Source: a virus
Length of the DNA: 64,000 nt
IMG/VR virus record: IMGVR_UViG_3300027733_000040
Span: 32,989-96,988 of that record
Reading direction: 5' to 3' (one strand)
Position 1 is the stretch's first letter. Each line of letters opens with the position of its first letter. The position numbers were made by a program, and so were the translations under genes. Shown here piece by piece: positions 2,906 to 26,004 of this stretch. Below the pieces are notes generated by a model that saw only the letters and a list, made by a program, of their open reading frames with translations, was not told the DNA's origin and made no database searches.

Positions 2906-4720
2906 ATGTTAGAAATCAAATCGGTTAAGTGGCGTAATTTTCTTTCATATGGTGATTATGAATCGGTATTATCTCTTGAGGATCCTGGGAGCTGCTTAAT
3001 AACAGGTGAAATAGATTCTGGCAATTCGCCCCAAGTCGGCTCAGAAGATATTCGCAAATCTAATGGTTCTGGTAAGAGTTCTATTCCAAATGTCGTATTG
3101 TGGGGCCTATTTGGCCGTACCATGCACGCTTCGTCAGCTGGTGATTCGATCATTAATCACTTTACTGGCAAGACTTGCGAAGTTATAATCGATTTTAAAA
3201 ACGGTGATCAAATTATCAGGCGTCGTCAAAAAGGCGGCACTACGGAAGTGTTGTTTAGTAGAGATGGCGATGAAACTAGGATTTCAGCCGACACCGTTTC
3301 TACATCTAAAGCCATGCAATCGCAGCTTAATAAGACCTTCAATCTCGACTATGATATATTTTGTGGTAGTGTTTTCTTTAATCAATATGGCCGTTCGTGG
3401 ATGGAAATGAGCGAAGTCGCGAGGAAAAAGGCTTTAGAAAAAATTCTAAGAGTCGATAGGTTTAGCTTCTATGCCAAAATTGCTAAAGCTAAATCTGACA
3501 ATGCTCAATTTCTTTTTACAAATTTTAAATCTAAAATTATAGACCTTGAAGCCAACAGAGATAGGACGATAAGTGATATCCAGTCTTATCGCGAAGAAAG
3601 TGGCGCCTATGAAATCAAGAGAGCCAAAAGGATATCTGATATAGATGCTATGATCGCTACTGTCAATGAAAAGATGAATAAGATAACCATACCAGATATA
3701 GATAAGTTAACCGAAAAGTGGAAGTTAATAGAAAAGATTAAAGCTGAAATCGATAGATTAAAATCTGAAGATGCTGGACATTTTAGAACTATCGCTACCA
3801 TAGAATCGAATATAGCCGTCTTAAAAAAGCGACGCGATGAGGTTAACAAGCTACAGGGCAAGAGTTGTGTCGCTTGCCAACAATCTATACCATCAAGCAT
3901 GATAACAAATAATCTTGACAAGATTGAAAAAGAGTTAACTACATTTGGTGTGCAATTAGCCGATGCTACCGCCGCTAGAGAAGAGAGCAATAAGGTTATT
4001 AAGAAGTACGAGACTATGTTATCGGCTAAAATACCTAACATCACCATTATGGAAGCTAATAACCTATCAACCATAGTTTTAAATTATAAAGCTGAAATCA
4101 AAAGATTAATGGCGCTACGGGCAGAGACCGAGACCGACAGCGACCCTAATCAGACAATCATAGAGAGGCTAGAAAGTAGGTTAAAAGATATCCTCGACAA
4201 TATTTTAAAACACAAAAGCGATTTAGAAGATATTACGGTGTTAGATAAGCATTATACTTATTTATATAAATCTTATAATGACAGAAATAAAGTAAAAAGC
4301 TTTATGTGTGAAGAGCATCTTCCTTATATTAATTCTCGCCTAGAACATTATTTAGGCATTTTAGGTCTAGATATTAAGATAAAGATCGAGAACGATCTTA
4401 GAATCACAAGTAACATGTGGGGCTATGAATATCAGTCAGGCGGCGAAAGAAAAAGGACAGATCTTGCATTTATGCTTGCGTCTTATGATTTTTATGAAGT
4501 AATGTATGGTAGGCAATGTAATTTGATGGTTTTAGATGAGGTCGATGGCAGGATGGATGAGGATGGGATAGAAGGTCTGATAAGTATCATAAGAAATGAT
4601 TTATCATCAAGAATAGACAACATATTAATTATCTCACACCGTAACCAAATGTTTGATGTTTTTGACAGAGAACTAAAGGTAAAAAGGATTAACAGATTTT
4701 CTATACTATCTGGAAATTAA
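2906..4720 (+). CDS. gp46/SbcC/Rad50-like recombination endonuclease ATPase subunit
   Basis: WRNFLSYG, Walker A SNGSGKS, coiled coil with CVAC zinc hook, signature SGGE, Walker B LMVLDE, ISH loop. Confidence 0.92.
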   Translation: MLEIKSVKWRNFLSYGDYESVLSLEDPGSCLITGEIDSGNSPQVGSEDIRKSNGSGKSSIPNVVLWGLFGRTMHASSAGDSIINHFTGKTCEVIIDFKNGDQIIRRRQKGGTTEVLFSRDGDETRISADTVSTSKAMQSQLNKTFNLDYDIFCGSVFFNQYGRSWMEMSEVARKKALEKILRVDRFSFYAKIAKAKSDNAQFLFTNFKSKIIDLEANRDRTISDIQSYREESGAYEIKRAKRISDIDAMIATVNEKMNKITIPDIDKLTEKWKLIEKIKAEIDRLKSEDAGHFRTIATIESNIAVLKKRRDEVNKLQGKSCVACQQSIPSSMITNNLDKIEKELTTFGVQLADATAAREESNKVIKKYETMLSAKIPNITIMEANNLSTIVLNYKAEIKRLMALRAETETDSDPNQTIIERLESRLKDILDNILKHKSDLEDITVLDKHYTYLYKSYNDRNKVKSFMCEEHLPYINSRLEHYLGILGLDIKIKIENDLRITSNMWGYEYQSGGERKRTDLAFMLASYDFYEVMYGRQCNLMVLDEVDGRMDEDGIEGLISIIRNDLSSRIDNILIISHRNQMFDVFDRELKVKRINRFSILSGN

Positions 4721-5282: not shown

Positions 5283-5648
5283 TTATTTTAAAAATTTTAA
5301 TTTATAAATGGTTTTATACATCAGGGAACTTATCTCCTGCATAATATTTCCGAGATGCCCGCATCCTTCCGGCATTTTCTCTGAAATTTTTGATACTTCT
5401 GATGCAAAAGATTCGAGGTATTCTACAATGTCCGTGTACTCTAGAAATAATTTATCTATTGGTTCTATTAATCCGAATTGTCCTTGATAGGTTTCAATTA
5501 ATTCGTCTGTTAATCCTAGCAATCCGTCATATAGTTCATTCAATGCTATATGTGCTGAAAACATATCTGTCTTTAAATGTTCATTATGCGCGATCTGCCT
5601 TGTCGAAAACAATTTAATGAACATCTTTTGCATTAAACCCTTGTCCAC
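5283..5648 (-). CDS. ferritin/Dps-like four-helix protein (DUF5856-like)
   Basis: AHNEHLKT..AHIALNELYD..DELIETYQG..LGNIMQEI..YKL pattern; AAGGAG before the GTG start. Confidence 0.75.
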   Translation of the reverse strand: MDKGLMQKMFIKLFSTRQIAHNEHLKTDMFSAHIALNELYDGLLGLTDELIETYQGQFGLIEPIDKLFLEYTDIVEYLESFASEVSKISEKMPEGCGHLGNIMQEISSLMYKTIYKLKFLK

Positions 5649-5697
5649 AGTATTCTCCTTATTAGTAGTAAATAATGTTATTTACCGAGGGCTGATA

Positions 5698-6312
5698 TTG
5701 GTAAGTCACATTATTTTGGCAAATTGTTCTGTAGAGTATGACGGTAGAGGCCTAAGCAATTTATCGAGCGGTGTCTACCTAATTGTTATTAAAGCCGATG
5801 CGTCGTTGCAGATACACACATCGAGGCTTATAAAGCCTATTAACTATATGGCGGCTGGGTCTAGAATCGATTTCGATGGCGATAATATAATAGCGAGGAA
5901 TCGATCAGAAACGATAAAAATCAAGATAAGCAATACGATTCATTCATTTAGCCCTGCCGAGTGGCACGATAATAAGATACAGATGCTAAGGACTGAAGCT
6001 GAATTAGTCCAGAAGTTACTTGTCGAACTTAATGCCGATTATCCAAACGATGAATATATTCAAGAGTATGACACAAAATCGCTTGGTTTAATCGATCTTG
6101 TTAGAATCGATTCTTTTTCAGTTTATCATTCTTATGAAGTTAAAAGGAAAAAGGCATCTATAGCTAATGTTTCACAGGCCATAAGATACGTAGAATATTT
6201 ATCAGCTATTAATAAGAAATGTGTAGGATATATAGTGGCTCCAAGTATTACTGAGAATGCTTTGGAATACGCCGAAAGTAAACATATAATAGTCAAGATA
6301 ATTGACTTCTGA
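5698..6312 (+). CDS. nucS: NucS/EndoMS mismatch-specific endonuclease homolog
   Basis: N-terminal ANCSVEYDGR..LIVIKADASLQIH..KPINYM matches NucS; C-terminal E..IDL..EVKR..SQAIRY nuclease motif; TTG start at 5698 with GAGGG upstream (ORF track starts at 5617). Confidence 0.85.
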   Translation: MVSHIILANCSVEYDGRGLSNLSSGVYLIVIKADASLQIHTSRLIKPINYMAAGSRIDFDGDNIIARNRSETIKIKISNTIHSFSPAEWHDNKIQMLRTEAELVQKLLVELNADYPNDEYIQEYDTKSLGLIDLVRIDSFSVYHSYEVKRKKASIANVSQAIRYVEYLSAINKKCVGYIVAPSITENALEYAESKHIIVKIIDF

Positions 6313-8286: not shown

Positions 8287-8621
8287 ATAAACCAAGGCTT
8301 TTATTTGCGAAACCAGTTTTCGCCTCTAAGCCTAGATCTTCAAAGTGGAAAAAAGCAAGAGCGGTTCATCTCGAATTAAATGGAATGTGTTTGGCGTGTG
8401 GTGGTAGAGTTTCGCTTGAAGTTCACCACCTCATGCCTTACCATCTAGCCCCCGAGCTAGAATTAGATCCAAATAATCTTATTACACTATGCGAATCTGC
8501 TAGCCATTGCCATTGGACTTTCGGCCACTTGCTTAATTGGCGTAGCTATAATCCCGACGCAAAAGCAGATGCAATTGCGTTTTTCCAAAAAGTCGTAAAC
8601 CGACCAAAGATCCTAGCCTAA
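8232..8621 (+). CDS. HNH endonuclease
   Basis: CLAC..LEVHH..NNLITLC..CH beta-beta-alpha-Me motif; start position uncertain. Confidence 0.85.
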   Translation: MGKNLKSSDKGNLRFNYLNKPRLLFAKPVFASKPRSSKWKKARAVHLELNGMCLACGGRVSLEVHHLMPYHLAPELELDPNNLITLCESASHCHWTFGHLLNWRSYNPDAKADAIAFFQKVVNRPKILA

Positions 8622-9959
8622 ACCGTGGAAGAAACACTGTGTTTCGATTTCTTCTTTGCATCTCTTGACTATCCTTGTGCTTACGCCAAGATAGTCAGCG
8701 AGATCGGTATTATTAAGTTTAGCGCCTGGATATTTTGTAGCATATTCGTGGAAACGATCGAGCTCGCCGTCGATCATAAAGCCAGAACTTTGCACTTGCA
8801 AAATCCACACTATTCTACTTAAATCATTTAAGTTATCAGCGACTTTATGGATTATTTCTTTAATTTCCACTTGAGTCTCATGGTCATCACCGAATCCAAG
8901 CATAGCCAATCCTCCCTGAACTAAATTGTCCAATCCTTCAGAATCATCCCCGTTTGTGTTCACACCGGTTCTACCAGTAGTGAATTTGATTTTTTCTTTA
9001 AATGTCTTCTTCATACTAACACTGTGGTTTTTGTTACTGGTTATTACGATCTTATCATCGTGCAATTCGTGTATTATACCACAGTCTGAGTGATTTTGCA
9101 ATATTAGCATGATAGAGATAATATCGTCAGTACCGCAAAAGAAAGTGTCGAATATTATGTGATATTCATTATAATCGCTATTTATATCCCTTAACATTCT
9201 ATTAAGGATATCTTCTTTGTTGTCTAAATCATGAAAGAGATTAGTCGATATTAGTTGACCATTTGGTGCTTTATACTTAACTTCGAAATTAGTGCCTGAT
9301 TTCATCAAGACCGCAGCGAAAGCGCTGATTATACTAAGTGAAGCAGGTACTTGGACCGTCTTTTCAGTCAAGTATTTCTGCTGTTGGTTTTCCTTAATCA
9401 CTTGCTGTTGATAATTCGAGATGTGTTTACTAACGAACTTTATAAGACTTTGGCGGTCGGCTAGTATCTCGTCGCTATACTTCCTTTCGCCCTTATTAGC
9501 GAATATTGGTGATCTTGAAGATTCAATGATCGGTAATTCGCATTCGTCAGGATTTTTGAATTCTTGGCCGACCATGATTCGGTTGCAGCACGGCGAAATG
9601 TGGTAGCATTGATTAAATTGTATAGTCAGACCGATCTTATTCTGGTAGCTGGTAGCTTTGCAATTTTGGCATGTGAAGCCGTTGATTTTGCGGCTCACGA
9701 GCAGATCTACTAATGCTCTCCATAATGCCACTAAGTAATCTTGCTCTGATGTAGTAACATCATCTTTATAGTCAGCACGTATTGTTCTATTAAACCTTTT
9801 TATAAATTTGGTTTTTGAGCGTTCTAATTCTGGTTCGTTGATGAGATTAGAAAATGTTAACTCGACTAATTGCTTTTCCTGTGGGTCGATTTCTTTCATC
9901 GATACGTTCACTAAAGAACCTCGCAGGTAAAGCTTCGACAGTTGGCGTTCATAACTCAT
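8613..9959 (-). CDS. divergent sigma-70-like factor with Cys-rich insertion
   Basis: region-2-like EQDYLVALWRA; insertion with CQNC..CC; C-terminal region-4-like HTH NTDLADYLGVSTRIVKRCKEEI. Confidence 0.5.
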   Translation of the reverse strand: MSYERQLSKLYLRGSLVNVSMKEIDPQEKQLVELTFSNLINEPELERSKTKFIKRFNRTIRADYKDDVTTSEQDYLVALWRALVDLLVSRKINGFTCQNCKATSYQNKIGLTIQFNQCYHISPCCNRIMVGQEFKNPDECELPIIESSRSPIFANKGERKYSDEILADRQSLIKFVSKHISNYQQQVIKENQQQKYLTEKTVQVPASLSIISAFAAVLMKSGTNFEVKYKAPNGQLISTNLFHDLDNKEDILNRMLRDINSDYNEYHIIFDTFFCGTDDIISIMLILQNHSDCGIIHELHDDKIVITSNKNHSVSMKKTFKEKIKFTTGRTGVNTNGDDSEGLDNLVQGGLAMLGFGDDHETQVEIKEIIHKVADNLNDLSRIVWILQVQSSGFMIDGELDRFHEYATKYPGAKLNNTDLADYLGVSTRIVKRCKEEIETQCFFHGLG

Positions 9960-10005: not shown

Positions 10006-10776
10006 ATGGCAAACTATTGTGATAGCGCCGTTTTGGAGAAAACCTGGTACCTTTGGATACTGGGTTCGTCACACCCAGATCTTGAACAATACAGGGCCTA
10101 CAATTTATTGTATACAAAACCCTGTTCGCCGGCAATGGTTGACGGGAAAATTCTTAAAAAACATGGGAAGGAATTGCTTGACCCTAGATCTGAGTATAAA
10201 ATACATTGCTTAGCCCTTCCTATCCCCGTTTTTTTCAAATCCCGTAATAACATTGTAACAGGTCGATATCGTCTTTGCAATATCTCTTCTAAGACTCCTT
10301 TCACACTAGATAGACGTTTGTTCACTATGGATAATATGTTTATGGGAAATGCGCTTAAGAACAACATATTTAAGCAGAAGTTAGAAGTGATCCCTAAGCT
10401 TTTAGAAGAAGGGTATATCAAAGAGCAACCGACTTCGGCATCATGGCATGACCTTCTTGCTGATATTGGTAAGATGTGCACAGGGATTAGTATGCGTTTT
10501 AATCTCTTGAATGACGACGAATATAGTGATCTCTCAAATGATGCACTATTACAAGTGATAAATAAATTAGTTAACAATAGGTTAGTATATACCCCCGGAA
10601 GAGCACCGGTATTTAATTTACTTACCACTACCATACATCGTTGTATGTTTAGTCTGCTTAATAAAAAGAATAGTCAGAAAGCTGGTTTAAATAAATTATT
10701 GTCAGATTCTCAATATAATCTTATACCAAAAATTAATAGGAGTCTTAAGACCCTGACACATAACCCGAGAAAATGA
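10006..10776 (+). CDS. gp55-like late sigma factor
   Basis: N-terminal NYCDSAVL and C-terminal IGKMCTGISMRF..DLSNDALLQVI..YTPGRAPVFNLLTTTIHRCMF resemble the T4 gp55 region-2 core. Confidence 0.55.
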   Translation: MANYCDSAVLEKTWYLWILGSSHPDLEQYRAYNLLYTKPCSPAMVDGKILKKHGKELLDPRSEYKIHCLALPIPVFFKSRNNIVTGRYRLCNISSKTPFTLDRRLFTMDNMFMGNALKNNIFKQKLEVIPKLLEEGYIKEQPTSASWHDLLADIGKMCTGISMRFNLLNDDEYSDLSNDALLQVINKLVNNRLVYTPGRAPVFNLLTTTIHRCMFSLLNKKNSQKAGLNKLLSDSQYNLIPKINRSLKTLTHNPRK

Positions 10777-10777
10777 C

Positions 10778-11767
10778 ATGAGATATAATAGGGCCATTTC
10801 GCCTAATGCTGTACACAGCTCCCATCTGCTGACAAGATTAAAAGCTCAAGCTGTTAAAGTGTCTATTGTAAATGGTCCTCAGCCAGGTGTGCGCCACCAG
10901 CAGCGTTCTGCTCCTTTACCTCCTAAGCCCGAAAAGCCACCCACGAAGATCCAAGATAGTGCAAGAGTTGCGCCCAAGAAGGCGGGGGCAGTCGAAGTTC
11001 GCCAGCAGCAGGCGATGCAAAGACAGGATATAAAGAAAAAGCGAGAGCCACGTGTTACTTATGTATCACGGACAGTTGACCCGATCTACCTAGAAAAGAC
11101 AAAAGCCTTAAAAGATACCGGCCGAGGAAAAACGCTTATAATAATAGGCAATGGGCCGACGCTTAATGAGGTTGATTTAAGGGGCCTTAAACATAAACCA
11201 GGTATAGAATTTCTATCTGTGAATTATCCTGATCCTAGATTATGGCCAACTGACTATTGGGCTTTCTTTGATTCATCTCAGATTCAGCGACACGCTGCTC
11301 TTTGGGATGAATTCAATGGAACCATCTTTAATTCTTCGTCGATACAAAGACGAAAGACAGGGACCATCCAATTCAGAAATATAGGTGTTAAATCATTTAG
11401 TAAGGATTTAGTAGATGGTTTATGCATAGGCAGAAGTAGCGTATTCGCTAGCATGCAAATCGCGCTTTGGATGAATTTCGATAAGATATACATTTTTGGC
11501 GTCGATATGAACCCATCGACAGATTTAAAGAAATTACATTTTTACGGAACAAATCCTGACGTATTACCAGAAAATAGGGCAAAAAGGTTTGAAAAGGAAG
11601 CGGAATACTATGTTACAGCTTTTGAATCGATGTCAGAGAAGGAGAGAAGTAAGTTTACTTTCTGCAGCTCTGTTAACCCATGGCCCTTTATGTCTATGTT
11701 TAATAAACTAGATCATAAGGTCGCTGCGTCCGAAATTTTACGTGATTATTTAAACCCCAAGGAGTAG
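10778..11767 (+). CDS. DUF115/MAF_flag10/MptE-like nucleotide-dependent transferase with disordered N-terminus
   Basis: IIGNGPTL, LSVN, SSVFASMQIALWMNFDKIYIFGVDM..HFY. Confidence 0.65.
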   Translation: MRYNRAISPNAVHSSHLLTRLKAQAVKVSIVNGPQPGVRHQQRSAPLPPKPEKPPTKIQDSARVAPKKAGAVEVRQQQAMQRQDIKKKREPRVTYVSRTVDPIYLEKTKALKDTGRGKTLIIIGNGPTLNEVDLRGLKHKPGIEFLSVNYPDPRLWPTDYWAFFDSSQIQRHAALWDEFNGTIFNSSSIQRRKTGTIQFRNIGVKSFSKDLVDGLCIGRSSVFASMQIALWMNFDKIYIFGVDMNPSTDLKKLHFYGTNPDVLPENRAKRFEKEAEYYVTAFESMSEKERSKFTFCSSVNPWPFMSMFNKLDHKVAASEILRDYLNPKE

Positions 11768-11774
11768 AAGGTCG

Positions 11775-12164
11775 ATGACTAAGATTTACGTTGCATCAAG
11801 TTTATATAACAAAACCAATGTTAAGGCACTCTATAAATATCTTGCTTATTTACAATGTACTATTACTTATGATTGGACCACTCATGGTGGTGTAAATGAT
11901 GAGGCTTCGCTTAAAGAGATCGGGCTCAAAGAATACCAAGGTGTTGTCGATTGTGATGTTTTGGTTATGTTAATGCCTGCGAGGCTTGGTTCGCATGTCG
12001 AGCTTGGTATAGCTTTAGCGCTCTGTAAACCGGTCATTATTATTACTAACGGTGAAGATTTCGAGAAAAAGTCATTTTATTTCTTAGACCATGTAAATAT
12101 TATCAGAGATATTGATGCTCTAAAAGGCGCACTTGATAAAATCACGGAACAAGAAAATGACTAA
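11775..12164 (+). CDS. nucleoside 2-deoxyribosyltransferase / nucleotide N-glycosidase family protein
   Basis: KIYVASS, DCDVLVML, GSHVELGIA (catalytic Glu), KPVII. Confidence 0.8.
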   Translation: MTKIYVASSLYNKTNVKALYKYLAYLQCTITYDWTTHGGVNDEASLKEIGLKEYQGVVDCDVLVMLMPARLGSHVELGIALALCKPVIIITNGEDFEKKSFYFLDHVNIIRDIDALKGALDKITEQEND

Positions 12165-12834
12165 TGGCGAACTGCTCACCAGAATAGAAATAGATGTTTT
12201 CCAAGGAAACGAAATCCTAGAATCCTTTGAATTAGCTCATAAGTACCGTCTGCCTGCGATCATAGTACATCCTTCATTAAGCTCTGATGCTTTGGTTTGT
12301 AGAGGCAGATCAAAAGGGAAGTATAAGATCATCACGCCGGTAGATTGGCCTAGGGGTGAAGTCTTCTCTACAGATAAGTTCAAGGGTCTAAGCTTAGATT
12401 CTTTAGAGACCGATGGTTTTGAGATATACATATCGCCAAAAAAGCAAAAGGGCGATATCAGAAAAGAAATAATTTCGTGTACAGAGTTTTTAAAGAAGTT
12501 TATTGGCGAGCTTTGTGAAATAAGATTCGTCATAGGCACAAGGACTAAGGATGAAGCTGATCTAGCGAGTGCTTATGAGGCCTTTCGTGATCTAAAGACA
12601 CCGACTTTAATTCGAGACGATATCTCCTTGAAGACTCAGAATTACAAGGCCAATCCAGCTATACACAGCGCTTTTATCACCAACATGTCGCAATTCTTAA
12701 AATGCCCGATAAAAGTAAGTGGTAATCTTGACTGTATTGAAGATTTACTGGCCTGCGAACCTGCAAAGCGATTTGGTGCCAGTCTTCAGCAGACCAAAGG
12801 CATAATTAGAAGTATTAATACGGTGAAAAAATGA
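12157..12834 (+). CDS. DeoC (deoxyribose-phosphate aldolase)-like TIM barrel, catalytic Lys apparently substituted
   Basis: AHKYRLPAIIVHP, ITPVDWPRG, IKVSGN and RFGAS align to DeoC motifs; FVKTSTG is replaced by LIRDDIS. Confidence 0.65.
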   Translation: MTNGELLTRIEIDVFQGNEILESFELAHKYRLPAIIVHPSLSSDALVCRGRSKGKYKIITPVDWPRGEVFSTDKFKGLSLDSLETDGFEIYISPKKQKGDIRKEIISCTEFLKKFIGELCEIRFVIGTRTKDEADLASAYEAFRDLKTPTLIRDDISLKTQNYKANPAIHSAFITNMSQFLKCPIKVSGNLDCIEDLLACEPAKRFGASLQQTKGIIRSINTVKK

Positions 12835-13127
12835 ACATTATTGAAATATTAGACCAGTTAGATGATGATATCGGTCTTTTATTTAAGACCGAGCAATGGT
12901 TACATTCAGAAAAATCGCGTGTGTCAGCTGAAGCTTCTGACATACTAAACAGATTAAAAGCAATTGACAATGCTATAAATCTGAAGAAGGTATTGAATAA
13001 CATAGACATTGGGGCTTTAAGGCATGCCTACGATGATGGTTTCCACGGAAAAGAAAATTTAATGCTTGAATTGATCAAATCCTATCTGAATAATTCTTCG
13101 GCGGAGGCTCAAGATGCAACGCGGTAA
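12831..13127 (+). CDS. hypothetical coiled-coil protein
   Basis: ATGA overlap with the upstream gene and overlap with the purZ-like gene. Confidence 0.65.
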   Translation: MNIIEILDQLDDDIGLLFKTEQWLHSEKSRVSAEASDILNRLKAIDNAINLKKVLNNIDIGALRHAYDDGFHGKENLMLELIKSYLNNSSAEAQDATR

Positions 13128-14313
13128 GTTCAATGTGGTTACTGATGGTCAGTTCGGTAGCACCGGAAAAGGGCTGATCACTTCTTACCTTGCACAAAAA
13201 CACAGACCCGAATTTTTATCAAACACCAATATGGCCAATGCTGGACACACAGCCGTTAATGTAGATGGCACTGCTTATATCGCTAAAGCAATGCCATCGG
13301 CTGCGATATTAAGAAAATGGCTACCTGATTACAATCCTTGGATAATAATGGGTTCTTCTTCTGCATTTACGCTACCGCAGCTAATGAAAGAAGTCGAAAT
13401 AACTGGAAGTGTCGATAGGCTTATTATTCACCAAAGAGCTATGGTGATCACAGAAGAGCACAGGCAAAGGGAAAACGAAGGCAAGGATAGCACAAAGCAT
13501 TTAGCGAGCACGATGCAGGGCTGTGGGGCCGCCATAGCAGACAAGATCCAAAGATTGCCAGGGACCAAGCTTGCAGTTGATTACGAAGAATTAAGTCGAT
13601 TTGTATTTTGCAAAACGTGGACACGACCTTCTTCTATATTAGAGGATATGTCTCTTTTTGATCCATTTAATGTGATGTGTAAACACCATTGTGAAGCCCT
13701 ACACGAATACATTGACTGTGTACTCAGGGCTACGTTCACTTTTCTCCACGAAGGCGCTCAGGGATTTTCGCTTGATATCAATCATGGCCACTCATATCCT
13801 ACTTGCACTAGCCGCGGTACATCGGCAATTCAGAATTTAGCCGATATGGGTATTTCGCCCAAGTTCCTTGGTGATGTATATCTGGTACTTCGACCATATC
13901 CAATAAGAGTTGGCAATGTGATCGAAGATGGTGTTCAGCAAGGGTATTCTGGTGGTGGTTACGATGACCAAGTCGAAATCGATTGGGAAGAAATAGCAAG
14001 AAAATCTGGGATGCCGCTAGAGTACGCTACGATATTAAGAGAGAAAGAGAAAACCACCGTTACAAAAAGGGTTAGAAGGGTGTTTTCTTTTTCTAAAAGG
14101 CAACTGCGTGAGGCCGTGATGGTGAATGGTGCCACTAAATTAGCTCTTAATTTTGCTAATTATATCGACTGGGCTTGCTTTGCATCATCATCAAAAGACA
14201 AACTTACCCCAAAGATCCTTGATTTTATAAAAATGCTCGAGGATGTCGCCGGAATACCTGTAACGCTTGTTGGAACTGGCCCACAATATGACCACGTCAT
14301 TGACCTATCGTAA
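13114..14313 (+). CDS. purZ: PurZ-like N6-succino-2-amino-deoxyadenylate synthetase (PurA paralog)
   Basis: DGQFGSTGKG (Ser in place of the PurA Asp), NAGHT, EGAQG, YPTCTSR, YPIRV, TTVTKRVRR, LNFANY; GGAGG RBS. Confidence 0.8.
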   Translation: MQRGKFNVVTDGQFGSTGKGLITSYLAQKHRPEFLSNTNMANAGHTAVNVDGTAYIAKAMPSAAILRKWLPDYNPWIIMGSSSAFTLPQLMKEVEITGSVDRLIIHQRAMVITEEHRQRENEGKDSTKHLASTMQGCGAAIADKIQRLPGTKLAVDYEELSRFVFCKTWTRPSSILEDMSLFDPFNVMCKHHCEALHEYIDCVLRATFTFLHEGAQGFSLDINHGHSYPTCTSRGTSAIQNLADMGISPKFLGDVYLVLRPYPIRVGNVIEDGVQQGYSGGGYDDQVEIDWEEIARKSGMPLEYATILREKEKTTVTKRVRRVFSFSKRQLREAVMVNGATKLALNFANYIDWACFASSSKDKLTPKILDFIKMLEDVAGIPVTLVGTGPQYDHVIDLS

Positions 14314-15079
14314 TAATCTAGAAGTCTCGGCTTGCATCGACGAACATCATGATAATATTGATGAATCTATAGATCTAATTAGAGCTACTGGATTTAAATC
14401 AGCGTCTATACTTAATATAAATGGATTGTCGCTCACTTCTTTACCAGACATTACTATAGAGAGAATTAAGAAAAGACTATCGGATATGCCGATAAATGTC
14501 ATAAGGATAGAGTTAGGTCATGGAAAAACAATAGCTCCAAAAGATATAGACAAAGAATTATCGATAGCTTCTTATTTTAAAGCTAAGGCGATCCAAATCG
14601 GCATCGAAAAATCATCATTTCTCGATAAGGCGAGTTTCGATGATTTTATCAGTAGATTATCATCATTTGCTGTGTCGATGTCATTAGTACCGATATTAGA
14701 AATGACTGATCATATGTTTATTGACACACCAGCCGATCTCGATAAATTCTTATCGTCACATAAAAGAATTAAGTTATCTTATGATCCATGCCGTTTTATG
14801 GAAAGAAGCAATAAAAATCCACACGAACGCTGGTTTGAACCTCTTAAGACGAGTGTTTACAGTATAATAGCAAGAGATTTTAAAACAGGCTCCGGTTTTT
14901 ATCCTATTGGCCAAGGCGCTACCAATATTGTTAAAGCTATAGATGAGCATATTTTAAACGGTGGTAGATACGCTATATTTAGACCGTCACTTGGAAGACG
15001 GTATGGTAGCACAGTCGGAAAGAAAGAAACATTTAAGTTAGCTTTGGAAGTGTTTAATAATCTATTCAGGAGTATTTAG
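14288..15079 (+). CDS. xylose-isomerase-like TIM barrel (sugar-phosphate isomerase/epimerase family), degenerate metal site
   Basis: CIDE..IDESIDL, ILEM, YDPCRF, ARDF, PIGQG pattern. Confidence 0.6.
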   Translation: MTTSLTYRNNLEVSACIDEHHDNIDESIDLIRATGFKSASILNINGLSLTSLPDITIERIKKRLSDMPINVIRIELGHGKTIAPKDIDKELSIASYFKAKAIQIGIEKSSFLDKASFDDFISRLSSFAVSMSLVPILEMTDHMFIDTPADLDKFLSSHKRIKLSYDPCRFMERSNKNPHERWFEPLKTSVYSIIARDFKTGSGFYPIGQGATNIVKAIDEHILNGGRYAIFRPSLGRRYGSTVGKKETFKLALEVFNNLFRSI

Positions 15080-15292
15080 ATGCTTAATGTCAACGAAGCA
15101 ATTCAGAAGATAAAATCTATCGGAGCCAGCAACGTTAGAATAGTTCCGATGGCTGGTCAGCCGATCAATAATGGTGATCATCAGATCGAGATTAAATCCG
15201 GAGCTAGTTGGGAATCGATTGTGTCTGGTGTAAAAAAGAAAATGGCAGAAGACATTGTAAATCAAGCTATAAACAAGGTTATCCTTGGTTAA
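15080..15292 (+). CDS. hypothetical protein
   Basis: AGGAG RBS; abuts the upstream stop. Confidence 0.7.
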   Translation: MLNVNEAIQKIKSIGASNVRIVPMAGQPINNGDHQIEIKSGASWESIVSGVKKKMAEDIVNQAINKVILG

Positions 15293-15732
15293 TGATAAAG
15301 AAAATAAAATCCGTAATAGAATTGTCCAAATATAAAATAGGTAATAAATTATATTTCATAGATTTATACACAGATTCAGACAGGGATTTAATACAAAGCG
15401 ATTTAAATTGGATGTTGGCTTGTCACCCTAAAATTTTCTTTGTCAAAAAGATATATAAATACAATACTAAATCGAAATATATATGTCCTAGACTTCCTAG
15501 TGCTGTTTTTAGTATATTATCATCTCTGTTAGTAGGTCAATTTAATATAATATGCTTTGAAGTTTCAGCGATTAAACGCTGTGCCAATACCGGCGAATTC
15601 TATTATTTCGATGGTAGTGGCGACTGGCACCCAGAATCGATATTATTCACCACAGAGCGCAAAGCGCTTAACGAAAAGAAGCGAATTTTATCGCTGGTTG
15701 ATGATTGGGCTTCGCACAATCGTGGCGATTAA
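15292..15732 (+). CDS. hypothetical protein
   Basis: TAATG coupling to the upstream gene. Confidence 0.6.
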   Translation: MIKKIKSVIELSKYKIGNKLYFIDLYTDSDRDLIQSDLNWMLACHPKIFFVKKIYKYNTKSKYICPRLPSAVFSILSSLLVGQFNIICFEVSAIKRCANTGEFYYFDGSGDWHPESILFTTERKALNEKKRILSLVDDWASHNRGD

Positions 15733-15741: not shown

Positions 15742-16266
15742 ATGAAGATAACTAAAGTTAATATATCCTTACCAAAGGTCGCTCAAAAGCACGATTATGA
15801 CTGCGGAGCTGCAGCTTTAAAGTCGATATATGAATATGAACACCCAGAAGACAAAAACGACTTATCAAAGTATACCAGATTATTAGGTAGCACTAAAAAT
15901 AAAGGGACAAGCACGCAAGAATTAGTTGCAGCTTGTAAGTTATTAGGTCTTAACTTTAAAGAATACCATGGCATGTCACTTTCTAGGCTGCATAAAGAAA
16001 TTAAGATCGGAAACCCGATACTTTGTCTCATAAGATCGAATGATCATGGCCACTTCGTAGTGGCTTTGGGATGTGATGATGATAATATCTATTTCGAAGA
16101 TCCTTTTAAAAAGAAAAATAACGGCTATTTGCCTAAAAAAGAATTTTTCGAAAGATGGACAGATGGCGATAACCATAGCGATCTTAAACGGTTTGGATTG
16201 ATTTTTAAGGTATCGCGTCCAAAAACAAAAAAGAAAATTACAGCCTATAAGATTTTAGGAAATTAA
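15742..16266 (+). CDS. C39-family cysteine peptidase
   Basis: Q....DCGAAAL, GT, GHFVV, EDP (Cys/His/Asp catalytic triad). Confidence 0.85.
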   Translation: MKITKVNISLPKVAQKHDYDCGAAALKSIYEYEHPEDKNDLSKYTRLLGSTKNKGTSTQELVAACKLLGLNFKEYHGMSLSRLHKEIKIGNPILCLIRSNDHGHFVVALGCDDDNIYFEDPFKKKNNGYLPKKEFFERWTDGDNHSDLKRFGLIFKVSRPKTKKKITAYKILGN

Positions 16267-16267
16267 T

Positions 16268-19200
16268 ATGGCAGATAATACAGATATAACGAGATCTAAT
16301 TATGTCGAATTAATCTCTGTAGATGTCGATTCAATGCTAATGGTGTGCAATGATAAGTACAAGACCGTTGAGAGCAGCTTGCCTAGGATTTTGAACGGTA
16401 TAGATTATCAGGCTTGTGATGCGCTTGCTGTTGTTGCGCCGCCAACAAATAAATTTGTGACAAATGTAGAAAATGTTCCAGGGTCTTTAAGAGAATTAGT
16501 AAGACGACCCAATGTTATTCTCACATCGTTTAACGCTATTAGTTTTTTAGGTCAGGATATTAATTTAGACACCACCGATAATATACCAACTATCACGTCG
16601 ACTATTCCGACTCTGCCTGATATTAATTGCCAAAAATTTGGCACTTCGGTCTCTTGCAAGAAGAATAGTGACAAATGTTCCATCGATTTGCATTTTATAG
16701 ATGCTTCGAGTTTAAATACCGGCATTGCCCCAGGCAGAGCGTTACTCCAGACCAACAAGGCCCTGCTTAGCGGTGGGTATGATTATCGATTGGCTATATC
16801 TAAAGTCAGAGGCACACCAGAATATATCGGGTTTTTCGCTGGTAAACAATACTATAAGCTTTCACTAAATACATTAAAGGGTTTTTGGGATAATTCTTGT
16901 GAGAATGACAGGATGATGGTCGATAAGTATGCCGCAATGGTTTCGGAGCCTGTTAATTCTTCTACAGTAAATCTAATCGGTGTTTCAACTGCTAACGCTT
17001 TTACATATGGTTTTAATAGTCAGTCATATGGTAGTCTTAGTAATATTGCAGTCTCATCCATAGTGAGATCTGTCGGGTTTAAGATGGAGCTGGCATTAAC
17101 CAGTTCAGGTAAGGCGTTAGATGGAAGCTGGCGGTTTGATCTTGCGCCGGCCAGTGGCCTTAACCTTAACCCTATGTTTAACACTAGCGGTCGCACGGGG
17201 CCATTAAATTATCAAATATTAATCGATTCGACTAAAAATCTATCGGGAATGGCCGATAATGATTTTTCTTTAAACGGTGCTGATCTTAAAAAAGTAGAGC
17301 CTTCGGATTATCTGCGATTTAGATCCTTAGCGACTAAGATCTTTTGCATTTATGTAGATCATCGTACTACTGGATTAGCATTAGACGATAACTTTAATTT
17401 TATAGATTCTGCGGTCGGCGGCTCAGACCAATTTGAGGCATTTAGGCAAGCCATACAATGTGGCCATAAGTTTTTGTTTATTTTAAATGACGAAACGATA
17501 AGCGCGTCCCAAGATTACTATAATTTTGTAGCGTCAGTCGGTATTGCTAGCGCAGCGGTTGTGCTAATAGATAGTCAGACCGCAGCGGGCGGTGAATACT
17601 TTGACCAGATATTTAGCTCTATAAATACTTTGTGCGGTTATGTTGGTCCTAACACGACACCAGGTGTATCGGCTTTTGGCTCTGTTAAGGAATTATGGCA
17701 GGGAGGATCGCTTTTTAAAGGTTCTAATCTTAAATCATTAACTCACTTCAAGATAAATAGTAGCTACACGTCACCAGACACGACTCCGCGGATACCTGAA
17801 GTATTAACTAACAATGAATCTTTAATTAGTTATGATTCTGTATTCGATAGGATTCTTTATATTGAGCAATCAGACGATTCCGTCTATAGATTATTTGCCA
17901 TGAATATGAAAACACGTGAACGTTCTGCAATTGCACCTTTACCTTTTTTGTTCGATATTGTGATAGGTTTAGACAGCAATGTTCCTTCAGTCCAAATGTA
18001 TGACCCTGGAATGCGGTTATTTTTCATTGGTACTAGTTCTGGACATCTATATTCGGTCGATGTTACGACCGGAAAATCGTCAGAGATCGTAATAAACTCG
18101 ATAGACTTTGTGCCAAGGCCAGAGCGGCGATATCCATCTATTACAGGGATTGGTATAGGGTATGTTCCATCTTACGATTACAATGGGGTTACTGATTTTT
18201 CTGGCCATCGTGCACTGTTTGTAGGATTCAATGCCGCAGGTTCGAATGATATCAAGCGTTATAGTATCTTGCGATCTTATGTTTATGATGTGTTGGTCTT
18301 TAATAAAACAGGGATAGCATCAAAAATAACACCATTAGTAAGTCTTGATTTGCCTTTGGCTGGAATGGCGAATCTGCGCAGTTTTAGTTTTATGTGTGCT
18401 CCAGTTTTTAATTATCTTATTAAGAATTTGCCTGCCACACCGGTCTCAGAATTTGTTTCAAACCAGAAATTGCCTGGTCTTTTGTTATGTTATGATATTA
18501 TGGACACCAACCAGAATCAAATAACACCGGAATCTGGACGTTGTGTTGCGATAAATCCGTTGATTCTCAATAAAGTGTTTGCGAGTCAAGCAAGCATCCA
18601 ATATAACATATTAGATACTTTTATTATACCGGCTTATTATCCTGTTACCAATCGTGCCGATTGGGTTACGATTGACGATTTTGGCGGCTCGGTTATCTGG
18701 TCCTCATTAGACATTACGCCCACGAAAACAGTCCTCGATTATTATTATGTGCCGGTACCTCCTGCTGGCGTTGACAATAAAGGCATCGAATTTTTCCCTT
18801 CTCTTGCTGTTTTATTAAATAGCTATGAGGCTGGCGGCAATGTTAGTAGTATTTTCTTCAGAGATTCTTTAGAATGTTCCGTTGGTGTAAAGGGTGTCGA
18901 GAGGCATGACTTTGGGCCTAAGAATATGAATTGTTGGGACCTTAGTAATAGTGCTTCAGCCCCTGTGTCTGATTCTTTTGTCGGTAATGAATTAGTTCTT
19001 AGATACGGAGAATCTGTTAGTAAAAATTATAACCTCGAGGCCGGAAAATACTTTGTCACTATAACCACTTCCGATTATCGCATAGGTACTGACGATGCTG
19101 GGCAAAATCTTACTGGTCTGGTTGATATTATTACTTCTGGAGGTAGCAGGTTCCATTATCTGCCAGCGCGACTAGATTCGACACCATTGGAAAAATTAAA

Positions 19201-22200
19201 GGTGCAATCGGTCCCTTTTCAAGGCGTTAACCCAACAGCTATAACCACAGCTGGATCATTAACCTACTTATTTGATATGCCAGCAGCGTTTAATATTACA
19301 CTTAAGAATAATTTAAAACCAGGGGCGATTACTTCTGAATTCGATAACACTAAATTCATTCCTCGTGGCGTTGGTGTCTACGGTATTAAGTTATGCAAGC
19401 TTCTTGATCAAACAGTTATATTAGATGGTATAAAGGATGTAAAATTAAACATCTCAGTTACTGGTATACCACGCCAAGAAGTGAACATTTTTTCGGCATT
19501 TGTTAAGGTGACTTACAGAGATTATGGAAGGCCAAATGTTAAAAAGGTCGCTTATCGCGAAGTCATTACGGACGGGCGTTCATCGCCGTATGCTGGTAAC
19601 AGCGTGCCTGTCGATTGTGACTATAGCGACACATGCAATTATTGGAAACAAAACGGCAATGGCGGCATACCCTCACAGTATGTGCTAAATCAGATTAGAC
19701 ACAGCGATTCACAGATGGAATCGACTACCAATTTTAAAATAGTCGATGTTACGTTATATAATAATTGCATCTGGTGTATACCAGCTGGATCGAGCAGGTT
19801 TGATCAAGCTACTGGAAAATATGTTCCGACAGATACCGCAGATACTTATACCATATTCTTTGGTGATTTTAAAACAGATATGATTGTAGAATCTATAGAG
19901 TATTTCTTCTTAGTTAATAAGATAGTCGATACTTCGAGTACCCCGCCAACTTGTGTCGACAATAAATCAAATTGCAAACCTGACCCAGCAACAGATATTG
20001 TAGTCCACTTAGATTACACTAATTGTAACAAAGAAATTAAGAGATTAACTCGAACTATAAATATCGGTTCTATAGTAGCAATAGAGCATGATCTTAGTAA
20101 AGTATTTCCTAGCAGTAGATGGGATTATATTAGACCACCATCTTCAAACGGAACGGCTTTGGGGCCACCAATTGGAAATGCTATTAACGGCAAAATAGGT
20201 GAATGGATATCATTTAAAGAGATTCTAGATAATACGACCGGTACTGGCGCTGACCAGTGTTCCGCCCCTATTTCTAATCAGTTGATATATAATGGTACTT
20301 CTTTAACTTCCGATCGCCCTACTGGCTGCGATATTCCAAATCCAAAAATCGGTGCTATAAGCCTTTTTGCTAAAAAAGTAAAACCTGCATTTGTCATAAC
20401 TGACATATCTGAGACTTCTCTAACAAATGAAATTCAATATATTACAATACCGCAAGCCGATGGTGGCATCTTTAAGCTTACTTTTGCTAAAAATGGTGTA
20501 ACCCAGACGGTGACTGTTCCTTATAATGTAACAGCCGCTCAGCTAAAGACTATTTTAGAAGCGAACACGCTAATTGGTCCTAACAATGTTCTAGTTACAG
20601 CGGTCGGCACAAAAAGTTATAAGATTGAATTCGTTGGAGCATTAAAAGGTTTAGCTATTCCGATTATGAAACCCATAAGCGATGGTCTTATTGGAACGTA
20701 TTTTGCTTATACAAGTCGTTCAGTGGTTGGCACCAAAAACGAGAGGCAAACCATAAGCAATGTTTCTGCTTCTAACAGAGCTTTTACCATTTTTTTTGCC
20801 GGCCAACAAACGGTAACAATTCCATACGATGCTAGTTTGAATACTGTCAGGGCCGCTTTGTCTGCATTGCCTTCAATCGGCGGCGGGAATGTTGCTGTTT
20901 CTGGCCAGACTACTAATTATGATGCCCCTTATACTGGCCCATGGAACATTGATTTTATAGGCACTTTTGCAGGAAAGAATGCATCTAGGCTCTCCACATC
21001 TAACAAGGACTATGTTGTTTATGTCGATTGGGTCGGTGGTATAGGTGTTAATGAAGTGCAAAAATTCAGCTACAAGGCCAATTCCGGTAGATTTAGTCTA
21101 TCATTGTATGGACCGACTGGTGCTTTTTGTACAACAGCGCCGATCGAGGCCACAGCTACCAATAGCGATATAGTTAAGAGTATAGTAGCAAATTGTAGTT
21201 TTTATGCTGCTGAAGACATTGGGTTAACGTTAGTCCAAAACGGAAATGTTTACGACTGGACTATAGAGTACAAAGGCAAGGCGACAGCCCAACCTGTTAA
21301 GCAGATAGGTATACAATCAGTCGATCTTGTCGGTGACGAAGTCACTGTTGTTAGAGTAGAAAAAGGTGGCGGTAAGCCACAAAAGATTAGATGGTCGTAT
21401 ACAAATGCCACAGCAGGTTTTTATATTTTAAGATTCGAATCAATCGATAAGCATATTTATTTTTCAGACAGGATATATTATAACGCTACGGCGGCAGAGA
21501 TACAGACGATCATAGAGAGTATGACTTTATTTGCGCCTGGTGACGTGACGGTTGTCCAATTAGACATAGGTGTTGTTGGGTCATACGAATATGTGCTTAC
21601 TATTAAAAAGAAAATAAGTGCACTACAAGTTACAGCCATTTTTGAGACCACGTTATTTGGAAGCCCAATTTCATATTATATCGTGCCTGATGGGCCATAT
21701 CCTTACCCATTGCCTTATTGTCCGTCTTTGACGCCTAAGATACATGGTGTTGATGGGTTGGTCTGCGTGCCTTTTCCTCCCGAGGAGGGCGATCCTTTTG
21801 CAGATGAGATATGCTGTACCCCAGAGACCATATCTAGCGCTGCAAATAAATCGACATTCTTTAAGATCGAAAGAGATCTTTTCAGTCCTAGTTTTCAGAT
21901 TAATGGTAAGTTAGCCACTGTGGGTTCGCTTATGGCGGCTAGGAATTTTAAGAAAAGCATTTATAAACCTTACTATTTAGTATCTAATACCTGTGTCGAC
22001 CTTGTCGAGGCGAAATACACAGATGAAATTAAGAGCCGGACCATTATCGTGATTATTAATAAGAAGGTCGATCTTGAAGTCCCTAAGATCAGAATTATAA
22101 ACCGCATCAAGAGTAATTATCCTAAGCTTGATTATTGTAGAGCTTTATCTTTTGAGAAAAACAAGGGTGGTCAGGATTTTCCAGATATATTGCCAGATAA

Positions 22201-24794: not shown

Positions 24795-25016
24795 ATGTTA
24801 GAGGAAATGATATCTATATTGCCTTCAAGAACAGCACTCGAACTTAGGAGTGTGTTTGGCAAAATTATGCGCGATATTGCCGTTTGCCACAAGGGTTTAG
24901 CAATTCTTGCTAAAGAAAAAGTGGATTCATTAGTATCAGATTTGAATTATATGTCATTTGATCTTGAAGCCACAAGGAGAGAGCGGGATGAATATAAAAG
25001 AAAACTTGGCGAATAA
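24795..25016 (+). CDS. coiled-coil hypothetical protein (frame open upstream to 24723)
   Basis: helical ORF overlapping the fcl start. Confidence 0.55.
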   Translation: MLEEMISILPSRTALELRSVFGKIMRDIAVCHKGLAILAKEKVDSLVSDLNYMSFDLEATRRERDEYKRKLGE

Positions 25017-26004
25017 TTTAAAAAGAGAATCGATATTAATCACAGGTGGTGCTGGTTTTTTAGGTAACAAAGTCGTCCAATGTTTCATGGAAAACGGTTT
25101 TGGCTCAGAATGTGTAAGAGGCCAGAAAGCCAGACCTAATAATGTTTATATTAATCGATCAGTATTATTCGATCTTACTATTGAGTCACATGTTTCAGAA
25201 TTGTTCAGCCGTCTATCGCCTACCATAGTTATACATCTAGCTGCTGCTGTCGGTGGTATCGGTGCTAATCAAAAAACACCAGGTTCTTTTTTTTACAAAA
25301 ATGCCATGATGGGGATACTTCTACAAGAGTATGCTAGAAGGCATAATGTTAAAAAGTTCGTTACTATCGGCACAGTTTGTTCATATCCTAAATTCACGCC
25401 ATCACCTTTTAAAGAATCAGATTTATGGAATGGCTATCCGGAAGAGACAAATGCGGCCTACGGCATCGCAAAAAAAGCCTTGCTTGTGCAGAGCCAAGCC
25501 TATCGCCAAGAGTATGGCTTTAATGGGATTCATCTGTTGCCCGCCAACTTGTATGGTCCGCTTGACAATTTTGATGATAGCACATCACATGTTGTCCCAG
25601 CGATCATCAAAAGAATCTACGAGGCCAAAAGAGACAAATTAGATCATGTAACCGTTTGGGGCGATGGTTCACCCACTAGAGAATTTCTATATGTGGATGA
25701 TGCAGCGAGAGGTATAGTGCAAGCTACCTCGACATATGATAGTCCTGAACCAATAAATTTGGGATCAGGGAGAGAGATTAGCATAAAAGATTTAACGACC
25801 AAGATAGCTCAAATAATTGGATATGATGGTCTAATAAAATATGATCATTCAAAGCCCAACGGGCAGCCTAGGAGGAGCCTCGATAGTACGCAGGCAGCAC
25901 TAAAATTTAATTTTCAGACGACCACTGATCTTGACACAGGGCTAAAAACTACTATTGATTGGTATATTGATCACATTTCTTCTATTGGAGCAGTTAGAAA
26001 ATAA
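24988..26004 (+). CDS. fcl: GDP-L-fucose synthase
   Basis: TGGAGFLG, HLAAAVGGIGAN, YGIAKK, NLYGPLDNF..SHVVPA, WGDGSPTREFLYVDD, KPNGQPR. Confidence 0.92.
   Translation: MNIKENLANNLKRESILITGGAGFLGNKVVQCFMENGFGSECVRGQKARPNNVYINRSVLFDLTIESHVSELFSRLSPTIVIHLAAAVGGIGANQKTPGSFFYKNAMMGILLQEYARRHNVKKFVTIGTVCSYPKFTPSPFKESDLWNGYPEETNAAYGIAKKALLVQSQAYRQEYGFNGIHLLPANLYGPLDNFDDSTSHVVPAIIKRIYEAKRDKLDHVTVWGDGSPTREFLYVDDAARGIVQATSTYDSPEPINLGSGREISIKDLTTKIAQIIGYDGLIKYDHSKPNGQPRRSLDSTQAALKFNFQTTTDLDTGLKTTIDWYIDHISSIGAVRK

Follow-up and report, generated by a model that had tools for sequence, protein, structure and literature searches.

A candidate 2-aminoadenine precursor module in DnaE-replicating jumbo myoviruses: a PurZ-type synthetase with an NDT-superfamily protein and two remodelled TIM barrels

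Introduction

To our knowledge, the phages known to carry 2-aminoadenine (Z) in their DNA are small sipho- and podoviruses. Adenine is excluded in such phages by DatZ and MazZ or, in the group whose synthase is PurZ0, by DutZ and DmtZ. Here we describe a gene block from a jumbo myovirus that encodes a PurZ-type N6-succino-2-amino-deoxyadenylate synthase and a different set of neighbours. The block lies within a 64,000-nucleotide stretch of DNA (the window), the last 64 kb of the 96,988-bp IMG/VR contig IMGVR_UViG_3300027733_000040. The completeness of the contig is put at 27% by CheckV, which corresponds to a phage of about 350 kb. On balance, we lean towards the view that the block is a module for making Z precursors in jumbo myoviruses of ~340-356 kb with a split DnaE-type polymerase.

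A biochemical precedent for one of these neighbours is DmtZ from phages Ghobes and Wayne, a protein with the NDT fold that both breaks down dAMP by hydrolysis and hands its deoxyribose-5-phosphate on to Z (PMC12884076, February 2026). Asp12 of DmtZ is essential for activity and has been proposed to read the 6-amino group of adenine (PMC12884076). PF05014 proteins, the family to which NDT belongs, have also been tied statistically to contigs of dZ-modified phages, with dA as the preferred donor (bioRxiv 10.1101/2025.10.22.683976, October 2025).

A PurZ-type synthetase

Four genes of the block carry most of what follows:

g3, 11775-12164, + strand: NDT-superfamily protein (nucleotide N-glycosidase / deoxyribosyl-transferase type), 129 amino acids; candidate dAMP-removing enzyme
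g4, 12157-12834, + strand: DERA-fold TIM barrel, 225 amino acids, with Arg153 in place of the Schiff-base Lys
g6 (purZ), 13114-14313, + strand: PurZ-type N6-succino-2-amino-deoxyadenylate synthase, 399 amino acids
g7, 14288-15079, + strand: xylose-isomerase-like (sugar-phosphate isomerase/epimerase) TIM barrel, 263 amino acids

The g6 protein matches PF00709 (E 1.5e-32) and phrog_1211 (E 2.6e-64). Among the sequences of solved structures, its best relatives are the PurZ proteins of phiVC8 (153 bits) and S-2L (134 bits), followed by archaeal-type PurA (126 bits), PurZ0 (70 bits) and bacterial PurA (about 63 bits). The N-terminal loop reads GQFGSTGKG, the same as in phiVC8 from QFGSTGKG on, with Ser in place of PurA Asp13. 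All 14 of the jumbo-family sequences examined share this Ser, where E. coli PurA has Asp. Asp13 is kept in 99% of the PurA group, and Ser at this position has been used as a criterion for PurZ (PMC12884076).

The rest of the active site tells the same story. At 11 of 12 dZ-associated positions, drawn from structural work and a metaGPA study, g6 has the residue of phiVC8 PurZ, the exception being position 34 (Ser for Ile). S14, P233, Y244, W252, T262, S/T273, F295 and Y298 are as in phiVC8 PurZ and unlike E. coli PurA, so that g6 carries the dGMP- and ATP-pocket residues of the phiVC8 enzyme; ATP-pocket positions 295 and 298 are F and Y, versus M and Q in PurZ0. Set against the residue list of the bioRxiv preprint, g6 has F, S, T, F and Y at the listed dZ positions, and position 12 is W or H in its relatives. 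In a maximum-likelihood tree of 21 rows (IQ-TREE), a small sampling from which archaeal sequences were left out, the jumbo clade and the characterised PurZ proteins form one group with support of 95/91, with PurZ0 and E. coli PurA outside it. Judged by Ser14, the pocket residues and this placement, g6 is of the PurZ type. A PurZ-like synthetase within a run of six + strand genes had been the core of the original prediction, and the reading frames, the phrog_1211 match, the Ser, the pocket and the tree all bear this out.

The g6 protein thus shares family, diagnostic residues and clade with the PurZ enzymes of Vibrio phage phiVC8, cyanophage S-2L and Acinetobacter phages, but is only 32-37% identical to them and carries two insertions. 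The setting differs too: the gene sits in a jumbo myovirus of ~350 kb, in contrast to the sipho- and podoviruses of 40-70 kb that carry the characterised enzymes.

Two further synthetase genes came to light. In a 137-kb relative (L043:8717-12352), the purZ frame is recovered by tblastn in three pieces with inserts of ~1.2 kb between them, which could be introns, inteins or homing-endonuclease insertions. The cultured Flavobacterium phage MaF61 (PQ858689.1; 168 kb) encodes a 'putative adenosuccinate synthetase' beside its terminase (L035:3983-5326) with the PurZ Ser (FGSSGKG), other PurZ-type residues and a large insertion. MaF61 is a possible cultured large Z phage that could be used for DNA chemistry.

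Helper genes, polymerase and Dut

In phiVC8, S-2L and the Acinetobacter phages, purZ is found in clusters with DatZ (an HD-type dATPase; PF12917/PF13023), MazZ (DUF550; a dATP/dGTP pyrophosphohydrolase) and the family-A polymerase DpoZ. The genomes that encode g6 and its jumbo relatives, in contrast, have a split DnaE replicase and lack recognisable DatZ, MazZ, DUF550, DUF5664 and DpoZ. Profile searches covered the 96,988-bp contig (G000), six partial relatives and three relatives with a completeness of 98% or more, namely G005 (354,091 bp) and two records that carry terminal repeats, G001 (355,825 bp) and G006 (341,434 bp). Searches of the contig by tblastn with DatZ, MazZ and DpoZ of S-2L and phiVC8 gave nothing, nor did a DatZ profile and PF13023 in G000-G004. 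PF04447, PF03819 (MazG) and PF18909 (DUF5664) were found in none of the 10 related records, each in the searches run on it; as a positive control, PF04447 recovered the MazZ of S-2L. No HD domain at all was found in G005 (98% complete), and neither G005 nor G006 has a PF04447 match. G006 has one weak HD match inside a 488 amino acid open reading frame (ORF), and G001 has one generic HD ORF. The latter was considered as a hidden DatZ and rejected: its likeness to DatZ stops at the generic H...HD motif, and G005 has nothing that corresponds to it.

DpoZ fares no better: there is no PF00476 match in G000, and G001-G003 have only a short PolA-like ORF of 393-416 amino acids. In G001, a short family-A polymerase-like ORF lies ~9 kb from purZ (G001:C1:254902-255600; L022/L025). 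All five genomes searched encode DnaE (Pol III alpha) as two or three separate ORFs, and PolB is present in none of them. The split gene is at G000:C1:125-2188, so that the contig begins within it, and at G001:C1:299105-304678, with the generic HD ORF of G001 directly after it.

One smaller relative offers a telling comparison. L017, a 43-kb viral contig (6063-10998), encodes a PurZ that is 42% identical to g6 and falls inside the jumbo clade, and beside its purZ are matches to DUF5664 (PF18909, E 2e-8) and MazG (PF03819, E 5.6e-5) and a weak HD match. As these were detected with the same Pfam models, the nearest small-phage relative appears to use classical helpers whereas the jumbo phages do not. 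Pfam searches for phage-encoded PurB and guanylate kinase turned up a single gene in all, a Lyase_1 gene of G006, and the steps after PurZ are thus presumably carried out by the host.

There is, however, a gene that could stand in for the classical helpers:

dUTPase-family gene, 26796-27356, + strand: Dut with an insertion, abutting thyX (25955-26803)

This Dut matches PF00692 (E 1.8e-17) and phrog_135 (E 3.5e-43) and has all five Dut motifs and an insertion of ~45 amino acids. Over 120 amino acids it is 30% identical to Archimedes gp55, which is annotated as a dUTPase and whose DutZ role is deduced from the Ghobes/Wayne paper. Dut-family genes are present in five of the five genomes searched, and that of the window is 12 kb downstream of the block. 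It could have a DutZ role, converting dATP and dGTP to the monophosphates, but is more simply an ordinary Dut. A gene for an NAD-dependent sugar epimerase/dehydratase (24958-26004), thyX and the dUTPase gene follow one another at 24958-27356. The earlier statement that DatZ, MazZ and DpoZ are unrecognisable therefore holds for the classical families across the whole contig, and extends to the three near-complete relatives, but it overlooked a Dut-family gene that could take their place, as DutZ does in PurZ0 phages.

An NDT-superfamily protein beside purZ

The g3 protein matches PF05014 (NDT) with E 6.7e-6 and 26.7 bits, against a cut-off of 28.8 bits. Its homologues fall into 836 clusters, and PF05014 is found on most of the best 120 of these. 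Y5, N12, E53 and the G72-S-H-x-E76 segment (GSHxELG) are invariant in nine relatives, E53 occupying the Asp/Asn position of the superfamily. The best matches among PDB sequences are the CMP N-glycosidases MilB and BlsM, which are weak (E 0.05-0.3) but in the same register. With the Tyr and Glu kept, g3 looks catalytically intact. Arg70 stands at the position of the 5'-OH-binding Asp of Lactobacillus NDT and other deoxyribosyltransferases, and since this Asp is replaced, Arg70 hints at a substrate with a 5'-phosphate.

Comparison with DmtZ brings out similarities of setting. The Ghobes/Wayne phages and the window phage both encode an NDT protein of ~130 amino acids beside the Z synthase, both lack DatZ and both have a Dut-family gene in the genome; the catalytic Tyr and Glu are found in DmtZ and g3 alike. 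There are also clear differences. The position of DmtZ Asn77 is matched by Glu53 in g3, the synthase of the DmtZ phages is PurZ0 rather than PurZ-type, the window Dut gene is 12 kb away and beside thyX, unlike in the DmtZ/PurZ0 phages, and neither the DERA-like nor the xylose-isomerase-like barrel has a counterpart in the actinophage clusters compared. A second point of reference is the NDT-M2 type of purine deoxyribosyltransferase from dZ-enriched aquatic metagenomes (bioRxiv 10.1101/2025.10.22.683976). These proteins and g3 both belong to PF05014, a likeness drawn from the published description rather than by comparing sequences. NDT-M2 is encoded apart from the synthetase and co-occurs with DatZ and PolA, whereas g3 precedes purZ by ~1 kb in genomes that lack DatZ.

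Two TIM barrels with altered active sites

No sequence family was found for g4 (in Pfam, including PF01791, PHROG or NCBIfam, or in profile searches against PDB sequences), and when its family was aligned with E. coli DeoC by hhalign, the match was confined to the region of strands 2-3. As these methods were uninformative, the fold is known from structure prediction. The AlphaFold2 model (predicted local distance difference test, pLDDT, 94.5) has 6d33 as its best Foldseek match (E 9e-12) and superposes on DERA with a Z-score of 22.2 and a root-mean-square deviation of 2.7 Å over 211 residues (VIA). Each of the 48 best structural entries is either a DERA or a design built on the E. coli DERA scaffold; homocitrate synthase comes next, at a Z-score of 16.

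The likeness to DeoC/DERA extends over the whole barrel (Z-scores 20-22 over >200 residues) and includes an FPxG-like motif (DWPxG) following strand 3, a lysine equivalent to Lys201 and the SGN phosphate loop. Residues were matched to those of E. coli DeoC through motifs and the register of the strands rather than through superposed coordinates. On this basis, Asp16 of DeoC corresponds to Asp13 of g4 and Lys201 to Lys186 (in PIKVSGN). The Schiff-base Lys167 (strand 6), in contrast, is replaced by Arg153 and Lys137 by Arg123, and g4 forms a separate family with no PF01791 match. The family comprises about 227 clusters, the contigs seen being of phage type. Among the 135 representatives counted, 129 have Arg at position 153 and six have Lys. 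K74 is present in 135/135 and K186 in 125/135. Lys159, present in 58/135, was considered as a shifted Schiff-base lysine and dropped on that count. With Arg at the Schiff-base position, g4 is not taken to be an active class I aldolase; the conserved polar pocket and phosphate loop nevertheless argue for a working ligand site.

The g7 protein has a marginal match to PF01261 (E 0.059), a family precomputed on three homologues, and a profile of its own family matches Art22 and AsbF (E 0.005-0.011). The AlphaFold2 model (pLDDT 90.4) has 5tnv as its best Foldseek match (E 1.7e-10), and the top matches are all xylose-isomerase-like TIM barrels, sugar isomerases and epimerases. The PF01261 barrels compared (ketose 3-epimerases, UlaE, IolE, YcjR, Art22, AsbF and endonuclease IV) share the fold (Foldseek E 1e-10 to 1e-8, template modelling scores 0.6-0.7) and have in common with g7 the first two ligand positions (Glu and Asp) and an RD.K motif. 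They differ in that two of the four ligands are replaced in the subclade to which the window protein belongs. Of the Glu-Asp-His-Glu metal site, g7 keeps Glu139 and Asp166 but has Ala for the His and Arg for the last Glu. The ligand register comes from alignment with Art22 and from the ligand spacing of ketose 3-epimerases. Across this subclade the His position is Ala, Ile or Val and the last Glu is Arg or Lys; a sister subclade has Asp and Glu.

Both barrels have thus lost canonical catalytic residues, as the word 'degenerate' in the original prediction implied. The strong conservation of g4 and g7 suggests re-tooling rather than decay.

Gene order and conservation

All six ORFs of the proposed unit are present on the + strand. 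Two starts were corrected from near-identical database proteins, to ATG 12157 for g4 (225 amino acids) and ATG 14288 for g7 (263 amino acids). The unit itself is larger than six genes: ten + strand genes occupy 10006-15732, with gaps of at most 7 nt or overlaps of 1-26 nt, and g1, g8 and g9 are as tightly packed and co-conserved as the rest. The remaining genes, with the divergent neighbour g0, are:

g0, 8613-9959, - strand: divergently transcribed conserved neighbour of the block, 448 amino acids
g1, 10006-10776, + strand: first gene of the packed block, 256 amino acids; probably a sigma-like factor
g2, 10778-11767, + strand: basic N-terminal ~100 amino acids followed by an MptE/DUF115 domain, 329 amino acids
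g5, 12831-13127, + strand: small, poorly conserved protein between g4 and purZ, 98 amino acids
g8, 15080-15292, + strand: best-conserved small protein of the block, 70 amino acids
g9, 15292-15732, + strand: conserved protein of about 146 amino acids; the longest ORF starts at 15208

The start of g4 overlaps the end of g3 by 8 nt and purZ and g7 overlap too, so that both pairs appear to be translationally coupled. No + strand terminator-like sites were found within 10006-15732, and promoter-like matches in the block are in modest excess (33, against a shuffled mean of 25.5, sd 4.4). At the level of DNA, a search for the block among GenBank phages gave nothing.

Searches with PurZ and the g4 family as queries recovered related loci in about 15 distinct contigs of 30-356 kb, and the order g0(-), g1, g2, g3, g4, (g5), purZ, g7, g8, g9 recurs in about 15 contigs at 21-58% identity. 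The expectation that the order would be conserved among purZ-encoding jumbo phages is thus confirmed. The immediate flanks are not conserved: the genes that lie upstream, beyond g0, occur only in near-identical contigs, and so does the gene for a C39 peptidase downstream. In the window, this C39-family cysteine peptidase (PF03412, E 5e-16) is followed directly by a 1,982 amino acid ORF (15742-22216 for the pair); the peptidase is confined to near-identical contigs and the 1,982 amino acid protein is partly conserved in relatives.

Two relatives are particularly informative. At L046:8475-9659, the PurZ is only 31-35% identical to g6 (GAGSSGKG, with the Ser kept) yet occupies the same slot between the same neighbours, an apparent in-situ replacement of the synthase by a xenologous PurZ. 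L048, a 341-kb record that carries terminal repeats, is the most distant of the loci. Here a weak NDT-like ORF is still found together with g4, purZ and g8, and g0, g1, g7 and g9 were not detected beside them. In L048 a 296 amino acid ORF separates g4 from purZ, and hhalign gave no sign that it is related to the g7 family. The xenologous PurZ in its slot in L046, the core retained in L048 and the gene overlaps argue for a functional link over plain collinearity. The NDT/g4/purZ group of L048 is flanked by genes for a class II ribonucleotide reductase with a LAGLIDADG intein (L048:11586-14561) and a ThyA-family protein (L048:5122-6276).

Other genes of the block and window

Homologues of g0 are found in the same position and orientation in 14 relatives, and its C-terminus has a faint similarity to sigma70-ECF factors (TIGR02937, E 0.054). 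No Pfam or PHROG family was found for g1, which is 36-46% identical in relatives and has an invariant C-terminal PGRAPVFNLLTTT..R motif reminiscent of sigma region 2. As a lead only, one of its three nearest Atlas clusters has Sigma70_r2 in 19% of members. By these sequence features, g1 is probably the block's sigma-like transcription factor and not a metabolic enzyme. A profile search with g1 against the PDB gave matches to adenylate kinases at chance level only.

The C-terminal domain of g2 matches PF01973 (MptE-like/DUF115) with E 9.7e-6 and 25.9 bits (cut-off 34.6) and WaaZ-like TIGR04437 with E 5e-5, and its nearest Atlas clusters are viral MptE-like proteins (scores 0.93-0.95). GNGPS and GxD(M) motifs are collinear with those of the sialyltransferase Cst-II, a weak match (E 0.23). 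The domain is Maf/Cst-II-like, whilst the basic N-terminal part is poorly conserved. The proposal that a DUF115-type transferase decorates the base finds no support here.

For g5 there is no family, and only weak similarity (25-36%) to same-slot ORFs of some relatives. The g8 protein is 46-58% identical in relatives and is present in L048; no PHROG family was found for it (Pfam was not run on g8). Neither Pfam nor PHROG has a family for g9. Beyond the block, the window encodes T4-type tail proteins, ThyX and dUTPase, an SbcC/Rad50-like ATPase (2906-4720) and a NucS/EndoMS-type endonuclease (5617-6312).

A possible pathway and its alternatives

If the block is a Z precursor module, g6 would condense dGMP and aspartate with ATP to give N6-succino-2-amino-dAMP, an activity predicted from its homology and residues, and host PurB and host kinases would take this product on to dZTP. 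By analogy with DmtZ, g3 would split dAMP into adenine and deoxyribose-5-phosphate and may also pass the sugar phosphate to free Z, taking over by this means the adenine exclusion performed elsewhere by DatZ. The dAMP and dGMP would be supplied from dATP and dGTP by the phage Dut-family enzyme or by host enzymes. More speculatively, g4 and g7 may together act on the deoxyribose-5-phosphate set free by g3, or on a nucleotide, either binding it or converting it by chemistry other than that of an aldolase; the removal of dAMP would thereby become irreversible, or the sugar would be recycled.

Several findings weigh against this pathway. The link of g4 and g7 to deoxyribose-5-phosphate is one of fold and position only, their canonical catalytic residues being gone, and g1 looks like a transcription factor. 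The g6 protein scores 232.4 bits against the NCBIfam PurZ model NF038379, under its cut-off of 300; the model has 293 positions and g6 carries its two insertions. The Dut gene abuts thyX, the normal context of an ordinary dUTPase. Orthology of g3 and DmtZ is not demonstrable: tblastn with g3 against GenBank phages (50,697 records) found no match, hhalign against the Wayne DmtZ domain gave only E 0.03 (in the right register) and the g3 family has no counterpart of Asp12, the residue six past the catalytic Tyr being variable (Y/F/N/Q/R/D/H/S) and the next, Asn12, invariant. For these reasons we take g3 as DmtZ-like in action rather than as a member of the DmtZ family. Finally, a looser synteny extends further out, for example to homologues of the 1,982 amino acid protein (g11), so that collinearity contributes and part of the conservation of the block could be core-genome collinearity.

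A more ambitious form of the pathway holds that these are fully Z-substituted DnaE jumbo phages with a third helper set, in which an independently recruited NDT-fold dAMP glycosidase is coupled to a lysine-less DERA-derived enzyme and an isomerase-like barrel with a remodelled metal site, these last two performing a new, non-Schiff-base chemistry on the deoxyribose-5-phosphate set free, for example recycling it towards dGMP or dZMP, or destroying it so that adenine exclusion becomes irreversible. We consider this unlikely, and offer it tentatively. Somewhat unlikely, in our judgement, is an account in which base substitution involves purZ alone, or perhaps purZ and the NDT gene, and the rest is a conserved segment of the core genome with unrelated jobs: g0 and g1 in transcription, and g2, g4, g7 and the nearby epimerase in sugar or glycan chemistry such as glycosylation of the virion or host surface. 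The sigma-like lead of g1 fits such a segment, as do the likeness of g2 to the CMP-sugar transferases Cst-II, Maf and WaaZ, the epimerase/dehydratase at 24958-26004, the CMP-sugar cytidylyltransferases of two relatives, the sugar isomerases and epimerases that are the structural neighbours of g7, and the looser synteny that reaches g11. It sits less easily with the overlaps of g3 with g4 and purZ with g7 and their apparent translational coupling, or with the immediate flanks, which are not conserved. G000, G001 and G002 have no cytidylyltransferase, and g4 stays beside the NDT-like gene and purZ even in L048, where g0, g1, g7 and g9 are undetected.

Alternatively, there may be no full Z genome. 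PurZ and the NDT protein would then reshape purine pools (partial Z, or salvage) or make another modified purine, perhaps with the NDT-fold enzyme exchanging bases on nucleotides, or on DNA after replication. The absence of both a dedicated dATPase (DatZ) and a Z-selective polymerase (DpoZ) would suit this account, as would a DnaE-type replicase with no known discrimination between A and Z, and base exchange is the chemistry of NDT, DmtZ itself transferring deoxyribose-5-phosphate to Z. We nevertheless find it improbable: the pocket residues of g6 are those of the enzymes of fully substituted phages, PurZ is the sole base-modifying enzyme recognised in the block, and S-2L likewise has no DpoZ and relies on pool control (PMC8065100). 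Least credible of all is that g6 is an ordinary auxiliary PurA that boosts AMP synthesis among unrelated neighbours, which we regard as very improbable indeed. Membership of PF00709 and a score of 208 bits against the archaeal-type PurA model PRK04293 are compatible with it, but g6 has Ser in place of an Asp13 found in 99% of the PurA group (PMC12884076), has dZ-associated residues of the PurZ type, and scores 153 bits against PurZ structures and about 63 against bacterial PurA; Ser14 and the pocket residues led us to reject PurA as its identity.

Novelty and significance

The locus had been put forward as an undescribed route to modified DNA. This was too strong, since an NDT enzyme acting on dAMP is precisely what DmtZ is (PMC12884076) and the association of NDT proteins with dZ has also been reported (bioRxiv 10.1101/2025.10.22.683976); the NDT part is already explained by the literature of 2025-2026, and the label of g3 as an NDT-family protein, with its catalytic Tyr and Glu, was sound. 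What remains new is an NDT protein without detectable close kinship to DmtZ beside a PurZ-type rather than a PurZ0 enzyme. DERA-like and isomerase-like partners of PurZ are undescribed, as is a Z pathway in DnaE-replicating jumbo phages, a setting on which we found no paper.

The g4 family, with its ~227 clusters, stands out as a candidate source of new enzyme chemistry acting on deoxyribose phosphate or nucleotides, and such an enzyme could serve the enzymatic synthesis of Z nucleotides. As for the phages themselves, the module would extend Z biosynthesis to viruses of ~350 kb with a cellular-type replicase, and one would then have to ask how Z is tolerated by a DnaE polymerase and by an extensive set of repair and recombination genes. 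It would also reveal a third, independently assembled helper set, which fits the picture of 'functional convergence' published in 2026.

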